A stretch of 6,510 bases of DNA. Source: Escherichia coli. GTDB lineage: Bacteria > Pseudomonadota > Gammaproteobacteria > Enterobacterales > Enterobacteriaceae. The position numbers and the translations under genes are program-made. The notes beneath the pieces are model-generated. The model saw only the letters and a program-made list of their open reading frames with translations. It was not told the DNA's origin and made no database searches. Positions 1,620 to 2,363 of the stretch are shown in pieces (the first letter of the stretch is position 1; every line of letters begins with the position of its first letter). The stretch lies in assembly GCF_003334335.1 (NCBI RefSeq), contig NZ_QOWQ01000075.1; one strand, written 5' to 3'.

Positions 1620-2363
1620 ATGACAGAGACAGAATCAGCGATTCTGGCGCACGCCCGGCGATGTGCGCCAGCGGAGTCGTGCGGCTTCGTGGTGAGAGCG
1701 CCGGAGGGGGAAAGATATTTTCCCTGCGTGAATATTTCCGGTGAGCCGGAGGATTATTTCCGGATGGCTCCGGAGGACTGGCTGCAGGCAGAGATGCAGG
1801 GTGAGATTGTGGCACTGGTCCACAGTCATCCCGGTGGTCTGCCCTGGCTGAGTGAGGCTGACCGGCGGCTGCAGGTGCAGAGTGATTTGCCGTGGTGGCT
1901 GGTCTGCCGGGGGGCGATTCACAAGTTCCGCTGTGTGCCGCATCTCACCGGGCGGCGCTTTGAGCACGGGGTGACGGACTGTTACACGCTGTTCCGGGAT
2001 GCTTATCATCTGGCGGGGATTGAGATGCCGGATTTTCATCGCGGGGATGACTGGTGGCGTCACGGTCAGAATCTCTATCTGGATAATCTGGAGGCCACAG
2101 GGCTGTATCAGGTGCCGTTGTCAGCGGCGCAGCCGGGCGATGTGCTGCTGTGCTGTTTTGGTTCATCGGTGCCGAATCATGCCGCCATTTACTGTGGTGA
2201 CGGCGAGCTGCTGCACCATATTCCTGAACAACTGAGCAAACGAGAGAGGTACACCGACAAATGGCAGCGACGCACACACTCCCTCTGGCGTCACCAGGCA
2301 TGGCACGCATCTGCCTTTACGGGGATTTACAACGATTTGGTCGCCGCATCGACCTTCGTGTGA
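1620..2363 (+). CDS. K: Tail tip assembly protein K, two-domain predicted peptidase (N-terminal JAMM/MPN metalloprotease plus C-terminal NlpC/P60 cysteine peptidase)
   Basis: ORF frame open from 1578 but that overlaps the L C-terminus; first sensible ATG is 1620, 4 nt after the L stop. JAMM motif visible: E-S-C-G (res ~19-22) ... H-S-H-P-G-G-L-P-W-L-S-E-A-D (HxHx7Sx2D). NlpC/P60-like Cys (GVTDCYTLF) and downstream His residues (HAAIYCGDGELLHH). An internal ATG at 1764 with GGAGG at 1748-1752 would give 199 aa, the lambda K length I recall, but would remove the JAMM Glu. Stop TGA 2361-2363. Confidence 0.88.
   Translation: MTETESAILAHARRCAPAESCGFVVRAPEGERYFPCVNISGEPEDYFRMAPEDWLQAEMQGEIVALVHSHPGGLPWLSEADRRLQVQSDLPWWLVCRGAIHKFRCVPHLTGRRFEHGVTDCYTLFRDAYHLAGIEMPDFHRGDDWWRHGQNLYLDNLEATGLYQVPLSAAQPGDVLLCCFGSSVPNHAAIYCGDGELLHHIPEQLSKRERYTDKWQRRTHSLWRHQAWHASAFTGIYNDLVAASTFV

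Follow-up and report, generated by a model that had tools for sequence, protein, structure and literature searches.

The window analysed here, 6,510 nucleotides (nt) of Escherichia coli DNA (contig NZ_QOWQ01000075.1, assembly GCF_003334335.1), is a lambda-type tail-tip operon in which H', M, L, K, I, an inserted lipoprotein gene and J follow one another on the + strand (Table 1). We focus on the junction between K and I, where the 3' end of K and the 5' end of I occupy the same 103 nt in different frames and which, on the evidence assembled below, is probably a real same-strand, out-of-frame dual-coding stretch. The existence of such an overlap, the starting point of the original prediction, is read directly from the sequence and from the listing of its open reading frames (ORFs), and its attribution to phage lambda is also correct: in NC_001416, K (14276-14875) and I (14773-15444) also share 103 nt in the same frame relation, the two I proteins have an identical N-terminus (MAATHTLPLASPGMARICLYGDLQRFGRR) and K is 96-97% identical. 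RefSeq gives K the same coordinates on an identical sequence; the lambda RefSeq entry for K is a 199-amino-acid (aa) form that starts at an internal ATG and omits the JAB domain, the 247-aa form starting 4 nt past the L stop. An in-frame TTG lies upstream of the K ATG, at 1578.

Table 1. Features of the tail-tip operon and of the K/I junction (window coordinates)
Feature	Position	Strand	Remarks
H, 3' end	25-591	+	
M	588-917	+	
L	917-1615	+	
K, 247 aa	1620-2363 (ATG 1620, TGA 2361-2363)	+	ORF listing and direct reading
Shine-Dalgarno-like GAGAGAGG for I	2242-2249	+	formed by K codons R-E-R, of which AGG (2247-2249) is a rare Arg codon
K/I overlap, 103 nt, ~34 codons	2261-2363	+	I in the +2 (= -1) frame of K
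Overlap part A	2261-2299	+	I residues 1-13 (leader) over K residues 214-227 (end of NlpC/P60, last strand)
Overlap part B	2300-2363	+	I residues 14-34 (strand 1, helix, strand 2) over K residues 228-247
Alternative I start, Met14 ATG	2300-2302	+	RefSeq/PGAP choice on an identical sequence
GTGA: K stop TGA over in-frame GTG of I (Val34)	2360-2363	+	
I, 213 aa from the first ATG	2261-2902 (ATG 2261, TAA 2900-2902)	+	ORF; start as in the lambda annotation
Inserted AT-rich gene between I and J	2975-3313	+	
J	from 3380	+	

Both proteins are readily assigned to families. K (PHROG phrog_30) combines a Prok-JAB domain (Pfam PF14464, residues 4-98, E = 6.8e-14), with the metal-binding H-x-H motif in the form H-S-H and residues E19, H68, S69, H70 and D81 invariant in 53 homologues, and an NLPC_P60 domain (PF00877, residues 111-224, E = 2.4e-12) in which the catalytic Cys and His (C121, H187, H199) are invariant; these domains and the position between L and I, as in lambda, are those of a lambda gpK/TAPK protein. 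I (phrog_32) carries the ubiquitin-like Lambda_tail_I domain (PF06805, residues 14-97, E = 7e-24), which has a glycine-rich end with a nearly invariant G96, followed by a C-terminal plug domain homologous to residues 135-223 of lambda gpI, where N171, G176, G184 and G189 are invariant.

The Pfam domains of the two proteins do not overlap: NlpC/P60 ends at nt 2291 and PF06805 begins at nt 2300. In an AlphaFold2 (AF2) model of K, built on the alignment of 53 sequences (mean predicted local distance difference test (pLDDT) score 94.4), residues 230-244 form a C-terminal alpha-helix (pLDDT ~93), which is missing from distant K proteins. The corresponding model of I places strands and helices at residues 14-92 (pLDDT ~80-87; first strand 14-19), and its residues 1-10 fall below pLDDT 50, so that the 13-residue leader (MAATHTLPLASPG) is predicted to be disordered. 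The overlap thus has two parts: in part A, a folded K segment is paired with the disordered leader of I, and part B would code folded elements in both frames, because the predicted K helix 230-244 lies over strands 1-2 of the I ubiquitin-like fold.

Overlap length among relatives

We surveyed the junction in ~80 distinct lineages, drawing on annotated phage records, 80 close IMG/VR relatives and 62 prophage loci from species-representative bacterial genomes, and three classes of overlap length emerged. In class A the overlap is 103 nt (lambda-like and Stx (Shiga toxin) phages; E. albertii, Citrobacter and Raoultella prophages) or 97 nt (Providencia, Proteus and Morganella prophages), and the I ATG lies 20 codons before the conserved Gly (Gly21) of a Y-G-D-L motif with GAGG or AGGAG ahead of it. 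The studied locus belongs to this class, as do 26 representative loci (106 sequences in total). Class B, with 58-67 nt and K proteins 44-54% identical, comprises mEp044 and prophages of Gilliamella, Budvicia, Enterobacter, Pantoea, Erwinia and Yersinia; here I begins with ATG or GTG at the equivalent of Met14, usually with an in-frame stop just upstream. In class C, made up of T1-like, Dhillonvirus, Klebsiella, Pseudomonas, Burkholderia, Rhizobium and Stenotrophomonas phages, the overlap shrinks to 4-26 nt and K ends a few residues past a conserved W/V-R-H motif.

Overlap is absent altogether from the isolated phage mEpX2 (L091 2232-2573), where a putative lipoprotein gene separates K from I, from two Haemophilus prophages, where I begins +9 and +754 nt after the K stop, and from one Methylobacterium locus; in Vibrio phage pVa-2, the genes after K lie on the reverse strand. 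One further record needs separate mention: in Stx2-converting phage 1717 (L099 1482-2063), K stops early and its C-terminus diverges from about residue 160 onward, with I beginning 54 nt past that stop; this K has probably been frameshifted in the prophage record.

The K-I family at large has the same domain content and gene order, and the window also has the H-S-H motif of JAB, the Cys and His of NlpC/P60 and a glycine-rich ubiquitin-like end; most members, however, overlap by 4-26 nt or are separated, against 103 nt here. The long overlap is therefore a trait of a sub-lineage and does not characterise the K-I system in general. The idea that it is conserved holds across the enterobacterial prophage clade that keeps 103 or 97 nt, but not for the sister group (58-67 nt) or for distant relatives (4-26 nt), and the idea that it is required is refuted at the level of the family by mEpX2 and the two Haemophilus prophages, in which I starts after the K stop.

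The start codon of I

The closest stop upstream in the I frame is a TGA at 2225, and the only candidate starts are ATG 2261, ATG 2300 and GTG 2360. The length of the overlap depends on this choice, and it therefore varies between 103 nt and 64 nt with the start that is called. From the comparative evidence, we infer that 2261 is probably the main start. The ATG at this position is invariant in all 106 class-A sequences, and GAGG or AGGAG precedes it in 26/26 class-A representatives. It is also maintained where the K protein has changed: when K Lys213 is replaced by Arg (L060 and the Providencia, Proteus and Morganella loci), the codons used are the rare AGA or CGA, which retain the A of the I ATG, although such codons could also have been drawn by chance (probabilities of 0.41, 0.37 and 0.08 by codon randomisation). 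Likewise, the Arg codon within GAGAGG is always AGG in the lambda-, Stx- and Citrobacter-type sequences, and AGG is a rare codon in E. coli. In the curated hybrid record of lambda h434 imm21, a ribosome-binding site is annotated at the matching position. Initiation at 2261 would yield the predicted N-terminus (M)AATHTLPLASPG, also written (M)AATHTLPLASPGMAR.

The competing view is that I truly starts at ATG 2300 (Met14), in which case the overlap would be 64 nt, 2261-2299 would be untranslated in the I frame, and the openness of that segment and its ATG would be by-products of K. Several observations favour this start, and so weigh against ours. The NCBI Prokaryotic Genome Annotation Pipeline (PGAP) calls I from 2300 in a 100%-identical E. 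coli prophage (DA33133, NZ_CP029574.1; L162 1401-2003), where the protein has 200 aa and the overlap 64 nt, and protein databases hold large clusters of I in 213-aa, 200-aa and ~191-aa forms, so that 200-aa entries are numerous. I residue 14 is the first position of the Pfam domain and of the predicted fold, and class-B relatives initiate at exactly this position behind a strong GGAGG Shine-Dalgarno sequence. Residues 1-13 are disordered and poorly conserved, differing by 31-69% between clades. The spacing between the Shine-Dalgarno sequence and ATG 2261 is long, ~11 nt, and both of these signals are in part by-products of conserved K residues (Trp215 and K-R-E). Given the K protein, codon randomisation leaves the I frame open over codons 1-13 with P = 0.62-0.86, and the ATG is present with P up to 0.85.

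Initiation at 2300 nevertheless seems rather unlikely. In the Stx clade the Met14 codon is always CTG (Leu); the Providencia group has TTG, CTG or no codon there, and in several loci of Providencia and Morganella no start codon at all stands at that position; no usable Shine-Dalgarno sequence precedes ATG 2300; I-frame stops are frequent just upstream of 2261 and none occurs between 2261 and 2300. The upstream ATG kept in 106/106 sequences, the rare AGG, AGA and CGA codons that preserve it and its Shine-Dalgarno sequence, and the suppression of K third positions in 2261-2299 (p = 0.006, see below) point the same way. It is also conceivable that both starts are in use. The virion mass-spectrometry supplements of PMC10721106 contain no N-terminal peptide of gpI, which is represented there by a single peptide (9.9% coverage).

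The third candidate, GTG 2360 in the GTGA at the K stop, was rejected because it would delete strands 1-2 of the ubiquitin-like fold. Two public records nonetheless carry I calls that cut into this domain: in PhiR12_2_star (L097 1589-2137), I is annotated from the GTGA at the K stop, and in Providencia PSTCR8lys (L083 2346-2789), from 122 nt past the K stop. Both still have the conserved upstream ATG and Shine-Dalgarno sequence, at -103 and -97 respectively, and these calls are probably artefacts of the penalties that gene callers place on long overlaps.

With 2261 as the likely start, a two-step origin of the overlap may be proposed. In a broad group of enterobacterial prophages, the codons of the K C-terminal helix would first have run over the first ~20 codons of the I ubiquitin-like domain, giving 58-67 nt; in the lineage of the lambda, Stx, Citrobacter and Providencia types, the I start would then have moved 13 codons further upstream, giving 103 nt (97 in the Providencia group). 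The new signals would have been written in existing K codons: the ATG from the last base of the Lys/Arg codon and the TG of the conserved Trp215, and the GAGAGG ahead of it in the conserved K-R-E-R codons. The 13 residues thereby added to I would be a poorly conserved, disordered leader in front of the ubiquitin-like fold.

Constraint and probable translation in two frames

Open frames as such were dropped as evidence of dual coding. Each is usually open by chance given the other protein: for the leader of I the values are those given above, and given the I protein, the K run-on of 21-23 codons is open with P = 0.6-0.9. The case therefore rests on the conserved ATG and Shine-Dalgarno sequence, on the structure predictions and on the pattern of substitutions, to which we now turn. 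In the lambda-like group (78 unique sequences), 20 of the 103 sites of the overlap are polymorphic, against 218 of 641 in the K-only region (p = 0.003). Rates of change were then obtained as parsimony counts (changes per site) on a neighbour-joining tree of 91 unique class-A sequences. Compared with the K-only baseline of 1.26, 0.47 and 5.74 at codon positions 1, 2 and 3, K position 3 falls to 2.62 in part A (where it is I position 1; p = 0.006) and to 1.57 in part B (p = 1e-6), and I position 3 in part B (K position 2) is at 3.3, against 6.88 at position 3 of an I-only control region that borders a mosaic break (p = 0.001). Synonymous sites thus appear roughly half as variable in the overlap in both frames, as dual coding predicts, and the synonymous-site check proposed with the original prediction comes out in favour of constraint.

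Not all of the substitution data sit easily with this reading. The rate of change at K second positions is 7 times higher in part B than elsewhere in K (p = 0.0005), and 10 of the 14 lambda-group polymorphisms in part B are silent in I and alter the K tail (e.g. Y237C, F246C, V247E), so the tail is under weak constraint, accepting radical changes within the lambda-like group. The rates themselves come from 13-21 codons per class and from a neighbour-joining tree of recombining sequences. In addition, pairwise counts among six clade representatives showed no reduction of K-frame synonymous differences in 2259-2300, although these counts are noisy (5-16 sites per class) and were replaced by the parsimony counts. 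The uneven pattern, with fast K second positions and part-B changes that are mostly silent in I, suggests that I dominates part B and K dominates part A. Still, we regard the K tail, with moderate confidence, as real protein, because its helix is confidently predicted, the I-frame synonymous rate is halved over 2300-2360 and a G-I-x-x-D pattern in the tail is kept across classes A and B.

In our preferred scheme for the translation of I, ribosomes would bind inside the K frame and start I by independent internal initiation at 2261; I would not be made by termination-reinitiation. The original prediction had suggested instead that the overlap couples K and I translation at a fixed ratio, which could occur by termination-reinitiation or if K-translating ribosomes unmasked the I start. 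The operon offers precedents for such coupling: the H/M junction is an ATGA (588-591) with GGAGG upstream, the M/L junction a TGATG (915-919), and L and K are separated by a 4-nt gap (1613-1622), all of the classical coupled type. The K ATG has no Shine-Dalgarno sequence and, because of this and of the short gap, K translation would seem to depend on reinitiation after L. Class-C relatives also have K/I junctions of the ATGA type, a GTGA is present at the K stop, and every ribosome that translates K must cross the I start site.

The K/I junction is, however, the outlier in this compact series. The short (1-4 nt) coupled overlaps of phage genes (ATGA, TGATG), such as H/M and M/L, likewise join same-strand genes of one late operon, but the K stop comes 103 nt after the I start, whereas the two lie within a few nt in coupled pairs, and the I start has its own Shine-Dalgarno sequence; termination-reinitiation is implausible over this distance and the mechanism of the short overlaps would not apply. 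The only start near the K stop, GTG 2360, would remove strands 1-2 of the ubiquitin-like fold. Masking of the I start by RNA structure was also considered and rejected: folding of 2215-2330 revealed no significant structure (z = +1.09; 174 of 200 shuffles fold at least as well). Viable relatives have K and I a whole gene apart or I after the K stop, and a fixed stoichiometry is not obviously needed when K is an enzyme with no structural role and each tail contains 3 copies of I. Fixed-ratio coupling is thus left without support and seems to us quite improbable; K and I would be translated without coupling.

Equally, the overlap could be imagined as a programmed -1 frameshift or fusion site producing a self-processing K-I fusion. 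Relative to K, I lies in the -1 frame; K and I sequence is joined in PHROG phrog_28576 and in several database proteins, and Iyer et al. noted fused forms in prophages (PMC1779556). The same operon offers a known case of a tail-assembly gene with a second frame in the -1 register, the lambda G/GT chaperone gene. In that system the slippery heptamer G GGA AAG fuses the two frames. The K/I overlap differs in that I has its own start and no X XXY YYZ heptamer exists in the K frame of the overlap, either in the studied stretch or in lambda-, Stx- and Citrobacter-type loci, the only homopolymer being GGGG. Moreover, the fusion proteins are singletons that carry further frameshifts, with junctions upstream of the I ATG (LSKRE|VHRQMAATHT). 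We consider programmed frameshifting extremely unlikely.

The apparent fusions (P0001, P0029, P0047, P0079 and phrog_28576) are 335-343 aa long, combine NlpC/P60 with Lambda_tail_I and switch frame in or near the GAGAGAGG run just upstream of the I ATG; they are probably products of prophage decay or sequencing errors. Separately, eight class-B loci (L137, L138, L142, L143, L147, L148, L151 and L157) contain slippery heptamers of canonical appearance, T TTA AAT or A AAT TTG, in the K frame; within the overlap, they closely follow the I start and precede the K stop by 45-51 nt. They coincide with the K-F-K at the I N-terminus and may be incidental.

The K-I module and its surroundings

The functional link between K and I is already published: the K JAB domain was predicted to remove the ubiquitin-like domain of I (Iyer et al., 2006; PMC1779556), and cleavage of I by K was reported as shown by the Davidson laboratory in a 2025 conference report, occurring only after I has joined the tip complex (PMC12908700). 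That K processes I, raised as a condition in the original prediction, is therefore in line with the literature. In virions, gpK is absent and gpI is a trimer (3 copies) of which only residues 134/135-223 are seen (PMC10721106, PMC12617516). Once both proteins of the studied operon have been made, the K JAB domain would, during tail-tip assembly, cut the ubiquitin-like domain from the structural C-terminal domain of I.

The comparison with lambda reveals a mosaic break. DNA identity, which is 90% or more as far as 2460, declines to 33-75% over 2461-2700, the middle of I (linker and hydrophobic region), where there is a 30-nt (10-codon) indel, and returns to 88-97% from 2701, over the C-terminal region of I (2701-2880). 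Because identity stays high through both K and the I ubiquitin-like domain and drops only after 2460, these travel as one recombination module. One might speculate that the overlap is more than a passive by-product, for example if the K helix 230-244 and I strands 1-2 formed a recognition interface, or if two I isoforms (from 2261 and 2300) were handled differently by K; we see this as a long shot. If the first were true, the shared 64 bases would lock the K-I pair against the recombination that shuffles the rest of I, the mosaic break starting only at ~2461.

A second difference from lambda lies downstream of I. The segment 2903-3379, which contains the ORF at 2975-3313, has a GC content of 36%, against 56-59% in its flanks, and is absent from lambda, where no such lipoprotein gene stands between I and J. 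Its product, a lipoprotein-like protein of 112 aa that begins MNKTILFCTIIALTGC, matches a single family, PHROG phrog_914 (function unknown), and is labelled hypothetical in RefSeq. The insert resembles a moron (a gene added to a phage genome), and its product could be a surface or exclusion lipoprotein. The putative lipoprotein gene between K and I in mEpX2 parallels this arrangement.

The overlap itself is not new: it has stood in the lambda reference annotation for decades, and the K-I link, a prediction of 2006, has lately been reported as demonstrated. What is added here is modest, namely the two-part anatomy, the graded series of overlaps (4-26, 58-67 and 97-103 nt) and the public disagreement on the I start. 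Taken alone the finding matters little, and its practical value lies in annotation: since long overlaps are penalised by gene callers, the N-terminus of I comes in three versions in public records (a 213-aa form, a 200-aa form and truncations that reach into the ubiquitin-like domain). Those who engineer or refactor lambdoid tail genes should bear in mind that 2261-2363 would be read in two frames and that 2300-2363 is predicted to code folded elements in both. For the phages themselves the main consequence would be genetic: one unit would encode the enzyme K together with the ubiquitin-like portion of its substrate, and change there is slowed in both frames.

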